Shown: positions 7,417 to 32,085 of the stretch, piece by piece | Numbering within the stretch: position 1 is the stretch's first letter | Layout: each line of letters starts with the position of its first letter | Sequence record: ON470601 | From: Escherichia phage vB_EcoM-569R9 | Reading direction: 5' to 3' (one strand) | Length of the DNA stretch: 32,497 nucleotides | The notes under the pieces: model-generated | Database searches by the model: none | What the model was told of the DNA's origin: nothing | What the model saw: only the letters and a program-made list of their open reading frames with translations | Program-made: the position numbers and the translations under genes

Positions 7417-7432
7417 GAAAAAGGTGAAAACG

Positions 7433-9265
7433 ATGAATGATATCTTTGTTCTTACAAGGGAAGAGCTTGAAACACTAGATTATAGTGTTTTTATGCATAT
7501 ACCAGTTACATTTCATGCACATAAAATAAAAAAATATCTGGATGGGATTGCTGAATCATCAGAAAACCCCAAAGAGAAAAAATTAGCATCTCTTTTTGGT
7601 ATGCTATATAGTTTCAATTTGCAAGTTGTTAACAACACTCCATCATTTGAACCCCAAATGATTTGGGGTAATAAAAGATCAATATTGCCTGAAGATTTTG
7701 ATGAGCAGGTGAATGACTGTCTTTTATATGTTTCTCAAAAAATAACCAATCCATTTTTGTTATCAAGAATATATGATGTTGTTTGGTGTAATAATCGGAA
7801 AAATAAAGACGTGGCAATTAAAGCAATTGATTCCTATGCTGAAATGCTAAATATAGCAATTGAAAAGCTAATAATAAAAAACGAAAGCATGGATGAAAGT
7901 GATTTAAATTGCTTTATTTTTGCTCGTGATTATATTGCTAGGGCTTTGCACATTAATAAAATGGTCTACCCTAGAAAATCAGAAGGAAACATGGCGATTA
8001 AAAATGCCATTCATTCTCTTTATAGTATTCAAAATGAAAGATTAATCTTTGAAGGTTTCAATAATTTGACTTGGTTTATGGTGCGTGATTTTGATGGGTA
8101 TAATCTGCAGTATGCGGAAAATGCTGAGAAGATGGCTGAGCAGCATAAAGATAAAAAATATTATGATGCTGTAAAATCACTTTATATGACAAGTGCAGTT
8201 ATTTATGAAAAAAATGGTGAGTATGAACGTGCCAAGAGATGTAAACTGGCATCTGCAAATATTACTATTAAAGTTGCAACAGATCGACCTGATAATATGG
8301 GTAAGATCTCTTGGTTAAGAACAGCTATCTCTGAATTAAGACAGTACGGTGGTGATAGCCAACAGATAGAAGATTTAAAGGAACAACTTGCTAATTTGAG
8401 AGAAGAAGTAAGGAGTGAATATGTCACTTTAAGCCATTCTATTGATATTAGTGACTTGGTTGCTGAAAGTGAAAAAAAACTGACGGGGCGTTCTTTGCCC
8501 GATATATTCAAAGTTTTAATGAGTGAAACACCGATTGAAAATATTGAAAGCATGAGGGAACAAGTTTTAAAATTATCAGAAAAAAGTTTATTCTCTAGTT
8601 TTGTTGGAACAGAAATTAATGATGAGAGTGGGCGTAAGATATATACAATCCCGCCGTTGGATAATAAAAAAGATATGAGTGATGATGTTGTTATTGATCA
8701 ATATCTAAGAAATTTCGAGATTACTCATAAGATTTTTGTAAACGGTGTCTTTGAACCTGCTCGCTATGTACTTTCTCAAGAACATGGCTTGACGTTGTCA
8801 ACATTCGTTAAATTGGTTACAACTAGTCCAATTGTCAAGCCGGAGTTTAGGGAGATTTTTAATTTGGGCTTTTACAAATTATGGCAGGGAGATTACATCA
8901 GTGCAGCTTATCTTTTAATACCACAAATGGAAGGTATGGTTCGTTATTATTATGAGCTTAGCGGAAAGGATGCTACTAGATATTTGGATAAGGGATTAGA
9001 GGAGTCAACAAGTATTTCTCAGCTTCTAGATAAATGCAGAGATGATTTGGAAAGTATCTTTTCTAAAAATCTTGTTTTGACTATCGATGTTCTTTTTAAC
9101 AGAAAGAGTGGGGCAACCTTAAGACATAAATTAGCACATGGTAATTTATATACTAATGCTTGTTACGATGAAACAACGACATATGCATGCATCCTGATTT
9201 TCTTTCTGTGTGCTTATCCTCTCCTACCATATTTTGATACTGTTTTTGAACAGGGCTCTGTTTGA
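7433..9265 (+). CDS. Orphan ~610-aa cargo protein in the P2 tin/old hotspot; candidate anti-phage defence (abortive infection) protein with C-terminal HEPN-like R-x4-H-G motif (LRHKLAHG)
   Basis: Single long ORF (frame open from 7331; RBS-supported start 7433); AT-rich relative to the backbone; located exactly between A and cos; no Walker A motif so not Old-like; not Tin size. Confidence 0.6.
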   Translation: MNDIFVLTREELETLDYSVFMHIPVTFHAHKIKKYLDGIAESSENPKEKKLASLFGMLYSFNLQVVNNTPSFEPQMIWGNKRSILPEDFDEQVNDCLLYVSQKITNPFLLSRIYDVVWCNNRKNKDVAIKAIDSYAEMLNIAIEKLIIKNESMDESDLNCFIFARDYIARALHINKMVYPRKSEGNMAIKNAIHSLYSIQNERLIFEGFNNLTWFMVRDFDGYNLQYAENAEKMAEQHKDKKYYDAVKSLYMTSAVIYEKNGEYERAKRCKLASANITIKVATDRPDNMGKISWLRTAISELRQYGGDSQQIEDLKEQLANLREEVRSEYVTLSHSIDISDLVAESEKKLTGRSLPDIFKVLMSETPIENIESMREQVLKLSEKSLFSSFVGTEINDESGRKIYTIPPLDNKKDMSDDVVIDQYLRNFEITHKIFVNGVFEPARYVLSQEHGLTLSTFVKLVTTSPIVKPEFREIFNLGFYKLWQGDYISAAYLLIPQMEGMVRYYYELSGKDATRYLDKGLEESTSISQLLDKCRDDLESIFSKNLVLTIDVLFNRKSGATLRHKLAHGNLYTNACYDETTTYACILIFFLCAYPLLPYFDTVFEQGSV

Positions 9266-9604: not shown

Positions 9605-10639
9605 TCAGCCGTTGTCAGTGTCCAGTGAGTAGTTTTTAAAGCGGATGACCTCCTGACCGAGCCAGCCGTTTATCTCGCGGATCCTGTCCTGTAGCGGGAT
9701 AAGCTCATTGCGGACAAAGACCTTTGCCACTTTCTCAATATCACCCAGCGACCCGACGTTCTCCGGCTTGCCGCCCATCAACTGAAAGGGGATGCGGTGC
9801 GCGTCCAGCAGGTCAGCGGCGCTGGCTTTTTTGATATTAAAAAAATCGTCCTTCGTTGCCACTTCACTGAGCGGGATAATTTTAATGCCGTCGGCTTTCC
9901 CCTGCGGAGCATAGAGAAACAGATTTTTAAAGTTGTTGCGGCCTTTCGACTTGACCATGTTTTCGCGAAGCATTTCGATATCGTTGCGATCCTGCACGGC
10001 ATCGGTGACGTACATGATATATCCGGCATGAGCGCCATTTTCGTAATACTTGCGGCGGAACAGCGTGGCCGACTCATTCAGCCAGGCAGAATTAAGGGCG
10101 CTGAGATATTCCGGCAGGCCGTACAGCTCCTGATTAATATCCGGCTCCAGCAGGTGAAACACGGAACCGGGCGCGAAGGCTGTCGGCTCGTTGAAGGACG
10201 GCACCCACCAGTAAACATCCTCTTCCACACCACGGCGGGTATATTTTGCCGGTGAGGTTTCCAGTCTGATGACCTTACCGGTGGTGCTGTAACGCTTTTC
10301 CAGAAACGCATTACCGAACACCAGAAAATCCAGCACAAAGCGGCTGAAATCCTGCTGGGAAAGCCACGGGTGCGGGATAAACGTTGAAGCCAGAATATTA
10401 CGTTTGACGTAAATCGGTGAGCTGTGATGCACGGCAGCACGCAGACTTTTTGCCAGACCGGTAAAGCTGACCGGTGGCTCATACCATCTGCCGTTACTGA
10501 TGCATTCGACGTAATCCAGAATGTCACGGCGGTCGAGTACCGGCACTGGCTCACCAAAGGTGAATGCNNNNNNNNNNNNNNNCGCTGGCGGTCATTTTTT
10601 TTGCCGCAGGTTGCGGTGTTTTCCCTTTTTTCTTGCTCA
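9605..10639 (-). CDS. Q: Portal protein Q (interrupted by a 14-nt N-run at 10568-10581)
   Basis: 313-aa ORF plus N-terminal exon MSKKKGKTPQPAAKKMTAS upstream of the gap; P2 Q-like; position next to terminase. Confidence 0.88.
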
Positions 10640-13498: not shown

Positions 13499-14592
13499 AT
13501 GCGCCAGGAAACCCGCTTTAAATTTAATGCCTACCTGTCCCGTGTTGCCGAACTGAACGGCATCGACGCCGGTGATGNNNNNNNNNNNNNNNNNNNNNNN
13601 CGAAAAAATTCACCGTTGAACCGTCGGTCACTCAGACCCTGATGAACACCATGCAGGAGTCCTCTGATTTTCTGACCAGCATCAACATTGTGCCGGTCAG
13701 CGAAATGAAAGGGGAAAAAATTGGTATTGGTGTCACCGGCTCCATCGCCAGCACCACCGACACCGCCGGTGGCACCGAGCGTCAGCCGAAGGACTTCTCG
13801 AAGCTGGCGTCAAACAAGTACGAATGCGACCAGATTAACTTCGATTTTTATATCCGCTACAAAACGCTGGACCTGTGGGCGCGTTATCAGGATTTCCAGC
13901 TCCGTATCCGTAACGCCATTATCAAACGCCAGTCCCTTGATTTCATCATGGCCGGTTTTAACGGCGTGAAGCGTGCCGAAACCTCTGACCGCAGCAGTAA
14001 TCCGATGCTGCAGGATGTGGCGGTCGGCTGGCTGCAGAAATACCGCAATGAAGCACCGGCGCGCGTGATGAGCAAGGTCACTGACGAGGAAGGGCACACC
14101 ACCTCTGAGGTCATCCGCGTGGGTAAGGGCGGTGATTATGCCAGCCTCGATGCACTGGTGATGGATGCGACCAACAACCTGATTGAGCCGTGGTATCAGG
14201 AAGACCCTGACCTTGTGGTGATTGTGGGGCGTCAGCTACTGGCGGACAAGTATTTCCCCATCGTCAACAGGGAGCAGGATAACAGCGAAATGCTGGCTGC
14301 TGACGTGATCATCAGCCAGAAACGCATCGGTAACCTGCCAGCGGTACGCGTCCCGTACTTCCCGGCGGATGCGATGCTCATCACGAAGCTGGAAAACCTG
14401 TCCATCTACTACATGGATGACAGCCATCGCCGCGTGATTGTGGAAAACCCGAAACTCGACCGCGTGGAGAACTACGAGTCAATGAACATTGATTACGTGG
14501 TGGAAGACTACGCCGCCGGTTGTCTGGTGGAAAAAATCAAGGTCGGTGATTTCTCCACACCGGCTAAGGCGACCGCAGAGCCGGGAGCGTAA
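13499..14592 (+). CDS. N: Major capsid protein N (interrupted by a 23-nt N-run at 13578-13600)
   Basis: Starts MRQETRFKFNAYLSRVAELNGIDAGD before the gap, continues ...FTVEPSVTQTLMNTMQESSDF...; P2 N-like. Confidence 0.9.
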
Positions 14593-14595
14593 CCG

Positions 14596-15337
14596 ATGAC
14601 GAGTCCCGCACAGCGCCACATGATGCGGGTCTCGGCAGCGATGACCGCGCAGCGGGAAGCCGCCCCGCTGCGACATGCAACTGTCTATGAGCAGATGCTG
14701 GTCAAGCTGGCCGCAGACCAGCGCACACTGAAAGCGATTTATTCAAAAGAGCTTAAGGCCGCGAAAAAGCGCGAACTGCTGCCGTTCTGGTTGCCGTGGG
14801 TGAACGGTGTGCTGGAGCAGGGCAAAGGTGCACAGGATGACATTCTGATGACGGTCATGCTGTGGCGTCTGGATACCGGCGATATTGCCGGTGCGCTGGA
14901 GATTGCCCGTTATGCCCTGAAGTACGGTCTGACCATGCCGGGTAAACACCGCCGCACCCCGCCGTACATGTTCACCGAGGAGGTCGCACTCGCGGCCATG
15001 CGCGCTCACGCTGCCGGTGAATCTGTGGATATCCGCCTGCTGACGGAGACCCTTGAACNNNNNNNNNNNTGACATGCCTGATGAAGTGCGCGCAAAGCTG
15101 CACAAAATCACCGGTCTGTTTCTGCGTGACGCTGGTGATGCCGCCGGTGCGCTGGCTCACCTGCAACGTGCGACACAGCTCGACTGTCAGGCAGGCGTCA
15201 AAAAAGAGATTGAACGACTGGAGCGGGAGCTGAAACCGAAGCCGGAGCCGCAGCCAAAAGCGGTCACCCGCGCCCCGCGTAAGACCCGGAGCGTGACACC
15301 GGCAAAACGTGGACGCCCGAAAAAGAAAGCCAGTTAA
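14596..15337 (+). CDS. M: Terminase small/endonuclease subunit M (interrupted by a 10-nt N-run at 15060-15069)
   Basis: Two ORF segments either side of the gap; basic C-terminal tail (RKTRSVTPAKRGRPKKKAS); canonical position. Confidence 0.85.
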
Positions 15338-16434: not shown

Positions 16435-16949
16435 TGCCGGTAATTAACACGCATCAGAATATCGCCGCCTTTCTCGACATGCTGGCCGTGTCCGAAGGGA
16501 CGGCGAATCATCCGCTGACGAAAAACCGGGGCTATGACGTGATAGTCACCGGACTGGACGGAAAGCCGGAAATTTTCACCGACTACAGTGACCACCCGTT
16601 CGCGCATGGCCGACCGGCGAAGGTGTTTAACCGTCGCGGTGAAAAATCCACGGCCTCCGGTCGCTATCAGCAGCTTTACCTGTTCTGGCCGCACTACCGC
16701 AAACAGCTTGCCCTGCCGGATTTCAGTCCGTTGTCACAGGACAGGCTCGCCATTCAGTTGATCCGCGAACGCGGTGCACTGGATNNNNNNNNNNNNNNNN
16801 NNNNNATCCGGGCGGGACGCATTGAGCGCGCCATTTCACGCTGTCGCAATATCTGGGCGTCCCTGCCGGGTGCCGGTTACGGTCAGCGTGAGCATTCACT
16901 GGAAAAACTGGTCACCGTCTGGCGTACCGCCGGCGGCGTACCGGCTTAA
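16434..16949 (+). CDS. K: Endolysin K (lysozyme; interrupted by a 21-nt N-run at 16785-16805)
   Basis: P2 K-like ORF following the holin. Confidence 0.85.
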   Translation: MPVINTHQNIAAFLDMLAVSEGTANHPLTKNRGYDVIVTGLDGKPEIFTDYSDHPFAHGRPAKVFNRRGEKSTASGRYQQLYLFWPHYRKQLALPDFSPLSQDRLAIQLIRERGALDXXXXXXXIRAGRIERAISRCRNIWASLPGAGYGQREHSLEKLVTVWRTAGGVPA

Positions 16950-21314: not shown

Positions 21315-24050
21315 ATGAGCACGAAATTTAAAACCGTTATCACTACTGCCGGAGCCGCGAAGCTGGCAGCCGCCACTGTCCCCGGCGGGAAAAAAGTAAA
21401 CCTGTCTGCAATGGCCGTGGGTGACGGTAATGGCAAATTGCCGGTGCCGGATGCCGGTCAGACGAAGCTGGTGCATGAGGTCTGGCGTCATGCCCTGAAT
21501 AAAGTCAGCGTGGATAATAAGAATAAAAACTATATCGTGGCTGAACTGGTTGTTCCGCCAGAAGTGGGCGGCTTCTGGATGCGTGAGCTTGGTCTGTATG
21601 ACGATGCCGGAACACTGATTGCGGTATCCAACATGGCAGAAAGCTATAAGCCAGAACTGGCTGAAGGCTCCGGACGTGCGCAGACCTGCCGCATGGTTAT
21701 TATTCTCAGCAACGTGGCGTCCGTTGAGCTGAGTATTGATGCCAGCACAGTGATGGCGACGCAGGATTACGTCGATGACAAAATCGCAGAGCATGAGCAG
21801 TCCCGCCGCCATCCTGACGCCACGCTGACAGAAAAAGGTTTTACTCAGTTAAGCAGTGCAACAAACAGCACCAGTGAGTCATTGGCAGCAACGCCAAAAG
21901 CGGTCAAGGCAGCAAATGACAACGCAAATTCACGTCTGGCGAAAAATCAGAATGGTGCAGATATCCAGGATAAATCAGCTTTTCTGGACAATGTTGGCGT
22001 TACCAGCCTGACGTTTATGAAAAACAATGGCGAAATGCCGGTTGATGCTGATCTGAATACGTTTGGTCCTGTTAAGGCTTATTCAGGTATCTGGTCTAAA
22101 GCTACATCCACTAACGCGACGGCTGCTAAAAATTTCCCTGAAGACGGTGCAGTCGGTGTACTGGAGGTATTCAATGGCGGTAATTTTTCAGGAATGCAGC
22201 GTTATACCACCAGAACAGGCAATGTTTATATGCGCAACCTTTCTGGCACATGGAATGGTTCAGACGGTCCGTGGAGTTACTGGCGTCAGGTTCAGTCTGC
22301 AACACGCCCCCTGAGCACAACCATTGACCTGAACACGCTCGGAGGCGCAGAGCATCTTGGTTTATGGCGAAACAGTAGTGGCTCAATCGCTTCATTTGAC
22401 CGCAACTATCCGGAAGAAGGAAGTTATGGTCAGGGACTCCTTGAAGTTCTTGAAGGTGGTGGTTACTCGCGAACGCAGCGTTACACGACCCGCCGTGGAA
22501 ATGTTTATGTTCGCTGTCTTTCGGCCTCGTGGGATGCAGAGAACCCACAGTGGGAGCCGTGGTCAAGAGTGGGCTACCAGTCAGAAAGCCGTTATTACGA
22601 CGGTGATTTGAATGATGTAACCTCACCAGGTATTTACAGCGTTACAGGTAAAGCGACCAATGGTCCAATACTGGACGGAAACGGCGTGACAGTCCTCGGT
22701 ATTCTGGAAGTGTTGAGGCGCTTTGATGGTGTTAACGTATGGCAGCGTTATACAACTGCCGGAACAGGTACAACCCTTAAAGGTCGCACGTTTGAGCGCG
22801 TTTTTACCGGCAGCTCATGGAGCGAATGGCGGGAAGTTTACACATCTTATTCACTTCCCCTGAATCTGGGTATCGGTGGCGCAGTAGCAAAACTCACCAG
22901 CCTGGACTGGCAGACATACGATTTTGTGCCGGGCAGTCTGATAACCGTTCGGCTGGATAACATGACCAATATTCCCGACGGTATGGACTGGGGCGTCATT
23001 GATGGCAACCTGATAAACATCTCAGTCGGTCCGAGTGATGATTCTGGTTCGGGACGCTCAATGCATGTATGGCGCAGCACTGTAAGTAAAGCCAACTACC
23101 GCTTTTTTATGGTGCGTATTTCAGGAAATCCGGGAAGCCGCACGATTACAGCAAGACGAGTACCAATCATTGACGAAGCCCAGACATGGGGCGCGAAACA
23201 GACATTCAGTGCTGGCCTTTCTGGTGAACTGTCCGGCAATGCGGCGACAGCAACAAAGCTGAAAACAGCCCGTAAAATTAATAACGTTTCGTTTGATGGA
23301 ACATCAGATATTAACCTGACGCCGAAAAATATTGGTGCATTTGCTTCAGGAAAAACAGGAGACACCGTTGCGAATGATAAAGCCGTTGGATGGAACTGGA
23401 GTAGCGGAGCCTATAACGCAACTATTGGTGGGGCATCAACGTTAATTCTTCATTTTAATATCGGTGAAGGAAGTTGCCCCGCCGCCCAGTTCCGCGTTAA
23501 TTATAAGAACGGCGGTATTTTTTATCGTTCTGCTCGTGACGGTTACGGATTCGAGGCTGACTGGTCTGAGTTTTATACCACAACGCGAAAACCTACAGCG
23601 GGAGATGTCGGTGCACTGCCGTTATCTGGTGGTCAATTGAATGGTGCTCTGGGTATAGGAACATCCAGTGCTCTTGGCGGTAATTCGATTGTTTTGGGTG
23701 ATAATGACACGGGCTTTAAACAAAATGGTGATGGTAATCTGGATGTTTATGCTAATAGCGTCCATGTTATGCGCTTTGTCTCGGGAAGTATTCAAAGTAA
23801 TAAAACCATAAATATTACGGGGCGTGTTAATCCCTCGGATTACGGTAACTTTGATTCCCGCTATGTGAGAGATGTCAGACTTGGCACACGTGTTGTTCAG
23901 ACCATGCAAAAAGGCGTGATGTATGAAAAATCAGGCCATGTAATCACGGGGCTTGGTATTGTCGGTGAAGTCGATGGTGATGATCCAGCAGTATTCAGAC
24001 CAATACAAAAATACATCAATGGCACATGGTATAACGTTGCGCAGGTGTAA
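21315..24050 (+). CDS. H: Tail fibre protein H, mosaic: P2 H-like N-terminal virion-attachment region fused to a long divergent distal region with a triplicated ~50-aa repeat
   Basis: 911-aa ORF (P2 H is markedly shorter); conserved N-terminus MSTKFKTVITTAGAAKLAAATV...; three repeat units around nt 22120-22290, 22400-22570 and 22660-22840. Confidence 0.85.
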   Translation: MSTKFKTVITTAGAAKLAAATVPGGKKVNLSAMAVGDGNGKLPVPDAGQTKLVHEVWRHALNKVSVDNKNKNYIVAELVVPPEVGGFWMRELGLYDDAGTLIAVSNMAESYKPELAEGSGRAQTCRMVIILSNVASVELSIDASTVMATQDYVDDKIAEHEQSRRHPDATLTEKGFTQLSSATNSTSESLAATPKAVKAANDNANSRLAKNQNGADIQDKSAFLDNVGVTSLTFMKNNGEMPVDADLNTFGPVKAYSGIWSKATSTNATAAKNFPEDGAVGVLEVFNGGNFSGMQRYTTRTGNVYMRNLSGTWNGSDGPWSYWRQVQSATRPLSTTIDLNTLGGAEHLGLWRNSSGSIASFDRNYPEEGSYGQGLLEVLEGGGYSRTQRYTTRRGNVYVRCLSASWDAENPQWEPWSRVGYQSESRYYDGDLNDVTSPGIYSVTGKATNGPILDGNGVTVLGILEVLRRFDGVNVWQRYTTAGTGTTLKGRTFERVFTGSSWSEWREVYTSYSLPLNLGIGGAVAKLTSLDWQTYDFVPGSLITVRLDNMTNIPDGMDWGVIDGNLINISVGPSDDSGSGRSMHVWRSTVSKANYRFFMVRISGNPGSRTITARRVPIIDEAQTWGAKQTFSAGLSGELSGNAATATKLKTARKINNVSFDGTSDINLTPKNIGAFASGKTGDTVANDKAVGWNWSSGAYNATIGGASTLILHFNIGEGSCPAAQFRVNYKNGGIFYRSARDGYGFEADWSEFYTTTRKPTAGDVGALPLSGGQLNGALGIGTSSALGGNSIVLGDNDTGFKQNGDGNLDVYANSVHVMRFVSGSIQSNKTINITGRVNPSDYGNFDSRYVRDVRLGTRVVQTMQKGVMYEKSGHVITGLGIVGEVDGDDPAVFRPIQKYINGTWYNVAQV

Positions 24051-24053
24051 ATT

Positions 24054-24581
24054 ATGCAGCATTTAAAAAACATTAAGTCAGGTAATCCAAAAACAAAAGA
24101 ACAATATCAGCTAACAAAGAATTTTGATGTTATCTGGTTATGGTCCGAAGACGGAAAAAACTGGTATGAGGAAGTAAGTAATTTTCAGGAAGACACGATA
24201 AAGATTGTTTACGATGAAAATAATATTATTGTCGGCATCACCAGAGATGCTTCAACGCTCAACCCTGAAGGTTTCAGCGTTGTCGAGGTTCCTGATATTA
24301 CCGCCAACCGACGTGCTGATGACTCAGGGAAATGGATGTTTAAGGATGGTGCCGTGATTAAGCGGATTTATACGGCAGACGAACAGCAACAACAGGCAGA
24401 ATCACAAAAGGCCGCGTTACTTTCCGAAGCGGAAAGCGTTATTCAGCCACTGGAGCGCGCTGTCAGGCTGAACATGGCAACAGATGAGGAGCGTAGCCGA
24501 CTGGAAGCATGGGAACGCTACAGTGTTCTGGTCAGCCGTGTGGATCCTGCAAATCCTGAATGGCCGGAAATGCCGCAATAA
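24054..24581 (+). CDS. G: Tail fibre assembly chaperone G (Tfa family)
   Basis: 175-aa ORF immediately after H; C-terminal EWPEMP-type ending typical of tail fibre assembly proteins. Confidence 0.8.
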
Positions 24582-24642
24582 GTGATATGATCTCTTGTGT
24601 TAGTTAACATAGCTATAGTACAGAGTAAGGCCTAATCTGACA

Positions 24643-24666
24643 GTCCGCTCTGTGCTAGGAGCGGAC
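24643..24666 (+). other. Perfect 8-bp stem / 8-nt loop hairpin (GTCCGCTC-tgtgctag-GAGCGGAC) nested inside a larger inverted repeat (TTAACATAGC at 24604-24613 / GCTATGTTAA at 24681-24690)
   Basis: Read directly from sequence; no T-tract follows, so not a canonical intrinsic terminator. Confidence 0.5.
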
Positions 24667-24970
24667 ATTATCAACATCATGCTATGTTAATGTATAAAGT
24701 GAAGATAAATTGATATAATAAGGCCACCATGAATATTTCAGAACCTTGTCAAAAGGTTTGCACATACTCTAGTCTTGCAATGTGTAGTTGATAGTTCCAC
24801 TGAGGAGGTTCTTCGACATTCTTTATAAAAATGTACATTTTCATCAATAATAAGAGGTAAAAGGGCTTTAATAGTTTTTTGTGGATGTTATGTCCACTCA
24901 TAAATTTTGAGATAAGTATTGAGTTGAGATAAAGTTAAACTCGTTAAATTCACCTTTAAAAGGATAAAGC

Positions 24971-25522
24971 ATGGACTGGAAAGATCTTGCATCAACCGCT
25001 GTGTATACAGGTATGACTGATGAAAATGAAAACATATGGGGACGTGTTGATGGGGTTGACGTTGCCTTCATAGGTGCCTTTCTTACTGCGCACTTGAGCC
25101 TTGAAAAGTATATTACTGATTATCTTGGATTAAGATATCCTTCGTTAGCTTGGGGTGATGCAAAACTCACATTTTCACAAAAAATAGCTTTAATACAACA
25201 TGAGCCTGCAAAACCCCCTTATGATGAAATATATTTAAGAATAAAAGACTTTAACAGCATAAGAAATAAAATNNNNNNNNNNNNNNNNNNNNNNNNNNNN
25301 NNNNNNNTGAATTATCAGATTACGGATAAAGAAAAAAGTAAGTTTGTGGACTTCTACATGAAGATTACTAAAGCCAGTAAAACTAAACCAAATATTGATA
25401 TTGATAACATGGCGGATTTGTTGGATTTTTTCGTATCGATGACAAAATCCTATTTTGCTAGTGCTATTTCTTATTATCACTATAATAAAAAGGTTGCAGG
25501 TAAAAGTAATAAAATTGATTAA
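24971..25522 (+). CDS. Orphan ~180-aa cargo protein in the P2 Z/fun hotspot (interrupted by a 34-nt N-run at 25274-25307); function unknown, candidate exclusion/defence gene
   Basis: ORF with RBS AAAGGA before ATG; AT-rich; between G and FI where P2 carries Z/fun. Confidence 0.5.
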   Translation: MDWKDLASTAVYTGMTDENENIWGRVDGVDVAFIGAFLTAHLSLEKYITDYLGLRYPSLAWGDAKLTFSQKIALIQHEPAKPPYDEIYLRIKDFNSIRNKXXXXXXXXXXXXXNYQITDKEKSKFVDFYMKITKASKTKPNIDIDNMADLLDFFVSMTKSYFASAISYYHYNKKVAGKSNKID

Positions 25523-25697
25523 TAAAACTGGACTTAGGGATAATTAATATATAGACGTTCTATCATTTTTAGAGTGTGCGGCAGCTCCATACATTCATGC
25601 GGATGTCAGCACCTCGCTCAAAGCAGACAGTCAGATTTGATAGCGTTTGGACTATGTAAATAGTCAGTTGGAAAATGAGTGAGTACAAATCAGGACA

Positions 25698-25724
25698 GGC
25701 GGGCGAATTGCCCGCCTTTTCTTT
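25698..25724 (+). terminator. Rho-independent terminator downstream of the Z/fun-position cargo gene
   Basis: Hairpin GGCGGGC-gaatt-GCCCGCC followed by TTTTCTTT. Confidence 0.7.
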
Positions 25725-25820
25725 ATCTGTTGTTTCATCCACTGACCAGCCAGGTCAAATAGCGCCTCATACTCTGCACAACAGAAAATAATTGCACCCA
25801 TTAACCACGGAGTTAAACGG

Positions 25821-30960: not shown

Positions 30961-32085
30961 TGCTGGATGCGCTGACATTTGATGCAGGCAGTACGCTGAC
31001 GCCGGATTACATGCTGATGCTCGACAGCAGGGATATTACCGGCAATATCAGCGACCGTCTGATGAGTATGACCCTGACGGATAACCGGGGCTTTGAGGCT
31101 GACCAGCTTGATATTGAACTGAACGATGCCGACGGGCAGGTCGGGCTGCCGGTTCGTGGCGCTGTCCTGACGGTTTATATCGGCTGGAAAGGTTTTGCCC
31201 TGGTATGCAAAGGGAAATTTACCATTGATGAGGTTGAACACCGGGGAGCGCCGGATGTGGTCACCATCCGCGCCCGGAGTGCGGATTTTCGCGGGACGCT
31301 CAATTCCCGCCGTGAAGGCTCCTGGCATGACACCACGCTTGGTGNNNNNNNNNNCCTCCCGTAACAGGCTGGAAGCCAGTGTCGCTCCGTCACTGGCAGG
31401 AATTAAAATCCCGCACATCGACCAGTCGCAGGAGTCTGATGCGAAATTTCTGACCCGTCTTGCAGAACGCAACGGCGGTGAGGTGTCGGTAAAAATGGGA
31501 AAACTGCTGTTTCTCAAAGCGGGGCAGGGGGNNNNNNNNNNCCGCAGCGACGGCGACCGTCATCATTTTGCGATTGCTGACCGTGGAGCCTACACAGGCG
31601 TAACGGCAAAGTGGTTACACACCAAAGACCCGAAGCCGCAAAAGCAGAAGGTAAAACTGAAACGCAAAAAGAAAGAGAAACACCTGCGCGCACTGGAGCA
31701 CCCGAAAGCGAAACCGGTCACGCAGAAGAAAGCGCCAAAAGTACCGGAAGCGCGCGAAGGTGAATACATGGCCGGTGAGGCTGACAATGTTTTTGCCCTG
31801 ACCACGGTATATGCCACGAAAGCGCAGGCCATGCGCGCCGCTCAGGCGAAGTGGGATAAACTGCAACGGGGCGTTGCGGAGTTCTCCATCAGCCTGGCTA
31901 CCGGTCGGGCAGATATTTACACGGAAACACCGGTCAAAGTGTCAGGCTTTAAGCGCGTCATAGACGAGCAGGACTGGACAATCACTAAGGTGACACATTT
32001 TCTGAATAATAGCGGCTTCACGACGTCCTTGGAGCTTGAGGTCAGGCTTTCTGATGTGGAGTACGAAACAGAAGATGATGAGTGA
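30960..32085 (+). CDS. D: Tail protein D (late control gene D family; interrupted by two 10-nt N-runs at 31345-31354 and 31532-31541)
   Basis: Three ORF segments spanning the gaps; canonical position before ogr. Confidence 0.85.

Follow-up and report, generated by a model that had tools for sequence, protein, structure and literature searches.

HepS (STM14_3211), the nearest characterised relative of the protein described here, is a solo HEPN protein encoded by the Gifsy-1 prophage of Salmonella (PDB 9oij and 9oik; Sargen et al., Nature 2026; PMC13043305). At rest, HepS forms a non-toxic tetramer, which is opened by binding of the siphovirus tail-tip protein J; the activated protein cuts tRNA anticodon loops, aborting infection, and requires no antitoxin (PMC13043305). 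In the same study, 393 HepS homologues were listed. Published surveys have further described accessory-gene and defence hotspots within the late and tail genes of P2. Here, we analyze a 32,497-nucleotide stretch of Escherichia phage vB_EcoM-569R9 (sequence record ON470601), henceforth referred to in its full length as the window, and in particular an AT-rich island located between the tail-fibre assembly gene G and the tail-sheath gene FI, the Z/fun slot of P2. The island carries a gene, read at 24971-25522 on the + strand, that probably encodes a stand-alone HEPN endoribonuclease remotely related to HepS, which would serve abortive-infection defence of the lysogen from a one-gene hotspot cassette.

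As read in the window, this open reading frame (ORF) spans 24971-25522, in line with the original prediction, and measures 552 nt. It contains a run of masked bases (N) at 25273-25307, which is 35 nt long instead of the 34 nt first given. By comparison with otherwise identical genomes, this run stands for only 11 bases, CAGTCATCAAT, and is 24 nt longer than the corresponding sequence in Ecol_867; the true length of the solo HEPN gene is accordingly 528 nt (175 aa). Outside the masked runs, the window shares 99.7-100% identity with the P2-like prophage of Ecol_867, which is inserted between cpxP and fieF and in which the ORF is intact and annotated as "hypothetical protein" (WP_001554309.1, 175 aa). 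There, window positions 24582-25740 correspond to NZ_CP018983.1, 3853221-3854355. Moreover, the whole island is present in 49 complete E. coli genomes at 98.9-100% identity, again with an intact ORF, so that resolving the gap did not reveal a pseudogene fragment, an outcome the original prediction had left room for. A genuine 24-nt in-frame insertion beneath the mask was considered and rejected, as all seven N-runs in the window have arbitrary lengths relative to the Ecol_867 prophage, the differences ranging from +24 to −30 nt. On this comparison the N-runs are placeholders and the '183-aa' reading of the ORF is an artefact. Since N-run lengths do not follow the real sequence, ORF lengths and frames read across them are unreliable. 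The mask extends from the third base of codon I101 to the first base of codon L105 and thus includes the histidine of an R-N-K-I-S-H motif; the codons of the catalytic motif (R98-N99-K100-I101-S102-H103-Q104-L105) are located at 25262-25310 (+), with CAGTCATCAAT as the masked piece in the reference.

Scans of the protein against Pfam, NCBIfam and PADLOC returned no match up to E = 10, and the single match in PHROGs is the unnamed phrog_5483. The designation 'orphan' therefore holds as far as a name in Pfam, NCBIfam or PADLOC is concerned, but not with respect to relatives: the close ones form 24 clusters, all from Enterobacterales and all unnamed, and an exhaustive profile search collected a wider family of 368 representatives, mostly stand-alone proteins of 160-210 aa. 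In the family alignment (21 members), a DFNxIRNKxSHxLNY block and an FLTAHLSxE helix are invariant, as are R98, N99, and H103. In a 70-member superfamily alignment, which includes 64 relatives outside the protein's own family (19-28% identical to the query), H41, E45, and R98 do not vary at all, while N95, N99, and H103 are at least 90% conserved. Active HEPN RNases are characterised by an R-x4-6-H motif with a polar residue (N/D/H) following the arginine and by a conserved acidic residue (Anantharaman et al. 2013; PMC3710099), and R98-N99-K-I-S-H103 conforms to this pattern. E45, found in 70 of 70 sequences, aligns with E48 of HepS; the residue at position +4 is T, not the K or R of the typical first-helix E-x3-[KR]. 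Single family members additionally show weak matches to the Pfam HEPN families Cthe_2314, Csm6_HEPN, MAE_28990, RiboL-PSP, and DUF4145.

Structure prediction with AlphaFold2 using the 70-sequence alignment yielded a predicted local distance difference test (pLDDT) score of 92.4 and a predicted template modelling (pTM) score of 0.83; this run replaced an initial one on a shallow 21-sequence alignment (pLDDT 61). P0001, which is 99% identical to the island protein, was used as stand-in query. The model displays the all-alpha helical bundle of the HEPN fold, with an N-terminal beta-hairpin and a helical C-terminus, and a Foldseek search with it retrieved HepS only, at a probability of 0.99-1.0. 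The island protein adopts the HEPN fold and carries an R-x4-H motif that is invariant in its family, a conservation that suggests RNase activity. Besides stand-alone proteins, three giant proteins, P0039 (4271 aa), P0147 (3978 aa), and P0152 (2278 aa), have 16, 7, and 9 separate stretches, respectively, that match the profile in its motif region (~84-145). These could be repeated HEPN-motif-like units or compositional artefacts.

The relationship with HepS emerged from several comparisons of sequence. Searched against the PDB, the superfamily profile hit HepS with E 6.8e-7, followed by the HEPN of Csm6. The PDB entry of the HepS H105A mutant scored below HepS, as expected if the histidine is aligned. 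Full-length HepS was recovered from IMG/VR with a HepS fragment entered as a two-row alignment; on its own, this fragment had no match by tblastn in the phage collection, nor in a large protein search. BLASTP of HepS against the window protein gave 26% identity over 73 residues (E 9e-6), and alignment of both family alignments with hhalign gave a probability of 97.8% (E 1.2e-12) over 92 columns, with residues 36-129 of the window protein matched to 39-131 of HepS. Aligned pairs (window protein first) include E45 and E48, W61 and F66, F68 and F73, K71 and K76, R98 and R100, N99 and N101, H103 and H105, L105 and I107, and Y107 and Y109; W61 is invariant. When the iterative search of Sargen et al. 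(2026) was emulated from HepS, with scaling to a database of the size of nr, the window family (P0001) was recruited in round 2 with E 2e-13. The protein falls within the broad definition of HepS homologues used by these authors (iterative profile search at E < 0.005, R-x4-6-H, less than 250 aa, no additional domain), and it likewise has no conserved partner or immunity gene and is frequent on prophages. It lacks the full-length similarity of the strict HepS clade (about 35-50% identity); the 24 clusters of the window family do not overlap with the 23 formed by close HepS relatives, and both families co-exist in Pectobacterium sp. PL64, which encodes the HepS-clade homologue P0197. On the strength of these alignments, we classify the protein as a HepS homologue in the broad sense, outside the HepS clade. 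The ORF, whose product had gone unrecognised at first, is in this way placed by remote homology search in a HEPN family remotely related to the anti-phage protein HepS.

The cassette was found in 49 of the ~1640 E. coli genomes that match its flanks and in 49-50 of 5,426 complete E. coli genomes (about 1%), mostly human and animal isolates. These E. coli cassettes occupy the same G/FI slot, alongside differing alleles of the tail-fibre gene H and of G. Relatives from other genera lie in a P2-like tail-fibre hotspot beside AbiGi (L007), in the gpA-portal hotspot beside HicB and PDC-S15 (L019), in a P2 remnant between ogr and gpA (L009), in a chromosomal islet of Pectobacterium sp. PL64 with PDC-S31 and a retron-type reverse transcriptase (L004), and at a chromosomal locus (L005). 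No partner gene is conserved across these six contexts, the E. coli G/FI slot included. Because no neighbour is common to all of them, the gene would act alone or with host factors. The gene is full-length in seven loci from several genera, and the pairwise ratio of nonsynonymous to synonymous substitution rates (dN/dS) amounts to 0.11-0.22 where dS is unsaturated; it is under purifying selection. The earlier view that the Z/fun slot holds cargo acquired horizontally, which plausibly serves exclusion or defence, is thus supported by an intact gene under selection, the HEPN motif, HepS homology, and the known or candidate defence genes beside relatives in both P2 hotspots. The Pectobacterium sp. 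PL64 locus holds a tandem pair of solo HEPN genes, both from this superfamily (L004, 4284-4784 and 5001-5510). Of this pair, the upstream gene encodes a protein of 166 aa with an MRNKFAH motif of its own and a match to the superfamily profile at 97.5% (E 5.6e-12).

In the mechanism that we propose by analogy with HepS, the lysogen would make the protein in a catalytically closed, oligomeric resting state. Because this proposed state is catalytically closed, no antitoxin would be needed. A component of the infecting phage, possibly a newly made structural protein, would bind the non-conserved N- and C-terminal parts, and this trigger would open the composite R-x4-H active site between two protomers. 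Cellular RNA would then be cut (tRNA anticodon loops in the case of HepS), translation would stop and the infection would be aborted, protecting the lysogen population together with the resident P2-like prophage.

Several observations weigh against this explanation. Homology to HepS is limited to the HEPN core, about 92 of 175 residues at about 20% identity, and the Foldseek TM-score (template modelling score) to HepS is just 0.44-0.47. The N- and C-terminal trigger-binding segments of HepS (S13, D15, Y20, S202, T203) have no aligned counterpart. Of the tetramer-interface residues F66, K78, and L83 of HepS, which align with W61, A73, and E78, two are not conserved, and K71, the proposed anticodon contact of HepS, aligns with L66. 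Because termini, interface residues, and K71 diverge, HepS is no guide to the trigger, the oligomeric state, or the target RNA of the window protein. The proteins also differ in length (175 aa versus 210 aa) and in carrier, a P2-like myovirus without a J-type tail tip in one case and a siphovirus in the other. Furthermore, PADLOC 2023 fails to recognise the protein, neither the cassette nor a detectable homologue was present in the isolated phages searched at the DNA and protein level, and the promoter discussed below is a match to a consensus. Tentatively, the family might represent a separate branch of solo HEPN sensors, in which the catalytic core of HepS is kept while the sensing termini have been replaced, with a phage trigger other than J and possibly another target RNA; sensors could then be swapped and diversified in P2 hotspots and in tandem paralogues like the Pectobacterium pair.

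The kind of system concerned was already known, having been published in January 2026; what is new is an unannotated, diverged relative in a classical hotspot. The link with HepS offers a concrete candidate function for one cassette of the P2 Z/fun hotspot and adds to the evidence for defence genes in the tail-gene hotspot of P2-like phages. With a core like that of HepS and different termini and carrier phage, the protein also lends itself to comparison when asking how solo HEPN nucleases are kept silent and which signals they detect.

Alternatively, the protein could be the toxin of a toxin-antitoxin (TA) module that functions in prophage addiction rather than phage sensing; its antitoxin would be a small protein or RNA that has escaped recognition, encoded within the 300-nt leader or on the other strand. 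We regard this as unlikely. HEPN-MNT toxins (such as SO_3166, PDB 5yep; 7ae2) always occur with an adjacent MNT nucleotidyltransferase antitoxin, whereas no MNT antitoxin gene was found in the window or at the homologous loci examined, and neither MNT nor any other partner is conserved across contexts. HepS, moreover, functions as a solo protein. The cargo-specific AT-rich leader (24669-24970, +) always co-occurs with the ORF, being present in 50 E. coli genomes, as compared with 49 for the full island. Homology of the leader with homologous loci elsewhere is limited to ~60-170 nt next to the ATG, where a TTAAAAGGA..ATG block is kept; a ribosome-binding site, AAGGA, was read from the sequence at 24960-24964 (+), 6 nt before the ATG. 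The leader had been described as structured, which is not borne out for its cargo-specific part: 24670-24975 folds no better than shuffled sequences (z = −0.22), and notable folding is confined to 24582-24700 (z = −2.6), corresponding to a conserved left inverted repeat that is common to P2, W-phi, and P2-EC67. Tandem repeats are absent from the leader, the sole one found being a 15-nt ATATTG run inside the ORF, and no Rfam family reaches threshold for the leader. In view of this lack of fold signal, tandem repeats, and Rfam match, a riboswitch or non-coding RNA (ncRNA) in the leader was rejected. Small ORFs in the leader or spacer found no support as partner genes. The same data set the island apart from type III TA systems and from AbiF, which is ncRNA-dependent: the gene has no tandem-repeat or structured ncRNA beside it, and the Pfam and PADLOC scans gave no sequence-family match to AbiF.

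A similarly low probability is assigned to the protein being an RNase of the phage's own programme, involved for instance in late processing of phage or host transcripts and co-transcribed by read-through from the V-G operon. The gene is oriented like the late operons, and such read-through is possible, as no + strand terminator was found between 24581, the end of G, and 25697. Hence, late tail-fibre operon transcripts may run through the HEPN gene. The tail-fibre assembly gene has no intrinsic terminator of its own before 25697, while P2 carries its V-operon terminator within its own cargo. Nevertheless, the gene is dispensable, as only 49 of the ~1640 flank-matching E. coli genomes and no isolated P2-like phage carry it; the family also occurs in non-phage chromosomal islets and in the other P2 hotspot, and the AT-rich composition is foreign to the phage.

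A candidate extended −10 promoter is plausible at 24711-24719 (+). Its sequence, TGATATAAT, matches the consensus TGnTATAAT, which occurs nowhere else in the 32.5 kb of the window, and lies on the strand that encodes the cargo gene; it is situated just after the left repeat, similar in position to a promoter annotated in P2-EC67. A 20-aa ORF starting with ATG (MNISEPCQKVCTYSSLAMCS), at 24729-24791 (+), begins 10 nt past this element. Downstream, the intrinsic terminator of the original prediction was retrieved at 25697-25727 (+), with a hairpin at 25697-25717 (9-bp stem with 7 G-C pairs) followed by a T-run. Its attribution to the cargo did not hold. The terminator lies outside the right inverted repeat and directly upstream of the pF Ogr site, and its conservation in P2 and W-phi identifies it as a backbone feature; it would stop cargo-gene transcripts, as well as any read-through from the V-G operon, ahead of pF. 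Alignment to the P2 annotation (AF063097) places an Ogr activator site at ~25728-25753 and the pF transcription start of the tail operon at ~25795 (together 25728-25797, +), likewise backbone conserved with P2 and W-phi. At 25478-25727 (+), Rfam gave sub-threshold matches to two Hfq-binding small RNAs of Salmonella, isrF and STnc150 (22 bits for the latter, against a gathering score of 60), both of which run up to and end on the backbone terminator. Identity with these RNAs was rejected, the scores being sub-threshold and the likeness consisting mainly of a terminator hairpin and AT-rich sequence.

Even less probable is a role in lysogenic conversion without catalysis, the protein being a regulator or RNA binder with a HEPN fold, as in the MtlR/YggD type. 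Although the fold is alike, the R-N-x3-H motif is invariant in the family and nearly so in the superfamily, whereas the inactive MtlR subset has lost it (PMC3710099). There is no Pfam mannitol-repressor match up to E = 10 for the protein or up to E = 0.01 for the 70 relatives, and MtlR is absent from the PDB results of the sequence profile, in which HepS and Csm6 do appear. In addition, no mannitol genes are found nearby, the gene being located in a prophage tail region instead of a mannitol operon. Finally, a decaying or non-functional ORF, carried along as junk in a recombination hotspot, might be suspected from the Ns in the window copy, the hypothetical annotation, and library matches limited to an unnamed PHROG, yet this is largely refuted and very improbable given that the N-run is a placeholder, 49 genomes carry an intact gene with identities of at least 98.9%, full-length copies in several genera show the low dN/dS values given above, and the catalytic residues are invariant.

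With respect to gene order, a tail-fibre gene (21315-24050), the tail-fibre assembly gene G (24054-24581), and the island ORF are followed by the tail-sheath gene FI from 25821. In reference P2, fun(Z) sits immediately upstream of FI, which confirms the proposed Z/fun position of the island. Equally confirmed is the AT-rich non-coding stretch of ~390 bp: the gap between the G stop codon (24581) and the ORF measures 389 nt, and GC content is 26-37% over 24550-25750, compared with 50-59% on either flank. Two inverted-repeat arms of 35 nt, at 24634-24668 and 25603-25637, flank the island and are 80% complementary. The left arm aligns with the 'left inverted repeat' annotated in P2-EC67 (AJ512685), and also with the sequence that immediately follows gene G in W-phi and P2; it forms part of the non-coding left boundary of the P2 G/FI hotspot (24582-24668, +), which includes a 9-bp hairpin at 24643-24666. 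The right arm (25603-25637, +) is annotated as 'right inverted repeat' in P2-EC67 and aligns with P2 and W-phi, and matches to P2-like phages resume at about 25603, the start of the conserved P2 backbone. Because the arms are conserved in P2-EC67, W-phi, and P2, we assign to the hotspot backbone the initial ~90 nt of the 'leader' as well as all sequence from ~25603 on. In the cargo proper (~24669-25602), the AT-rich leader of ~300 nt is followed by the ORF and then by a spacer of 80 nt. The island is a cassette with a single gene, made up of its own leader and a 175-aa ORF, and is flanked by the inverted repeats that are conserved at the G/FI (Z/fun) hotspot of P2. Beyond GenBank annotation, a search of the published literature on these repeats yielded nothing usable; reportedly, they were described by Nilsson and colleagues in Mol Biol Evol in 2004.

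Several other cargos are known from this slot. P2 Fun(Z) is located between G and FI with the same flanking inverted repeats, and both genes are non-essential AT-rich cargo. Fun(Z), however, is a 528-aa protein encoded on the opposite strand and unrelated to the window protein (hhalign probability 0.1%); homology was rejected, the locus alone being in common. Because the proteins are unrelated, no function can be deduced from Fun(Z), and the suggested link with T5 exclusion is purely positional. ORF1 of P2-EC67 (AJ512685) and orf44 of W-phi are single + strand ORFs between the same repeats, with their own promoter region directly after the left repeat; they encode different proteins of about 300 aa. 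In the phage collection, no DNA similarity to the cassette interior was detected.

The remaining observations concern the window at large. Caution is needed when reading its sequence, as the N-runs are not length-faithful. Other than in the HEPN gene, they are located at 10568-10582, 13578-13600, 15059-15069, 16785-16805, 31345-31354, and 31532-31541, with length differences from Ecol_867 of +1, +20, −2, +18, −8, and −30 nt, respectively. The gpA-portal (old/tin) hotspot holds a first AT-rich island (34-37% GC), located at ~7420-9252 (+). Its product, a DUF7380 protein of 610 aa (WP_021535452.1), has a match to PDC-S39, a candidate system in PADLOC (E 7e-85), and because of this match both P2 hotspots of the prophage appear to hold putative defence cargo. 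At the integrase end, the prophage adjoins cpxP (window ~849-1336, by correspondence with L032 2039-2526), which is annotated as frameshifted in Ecol_867.
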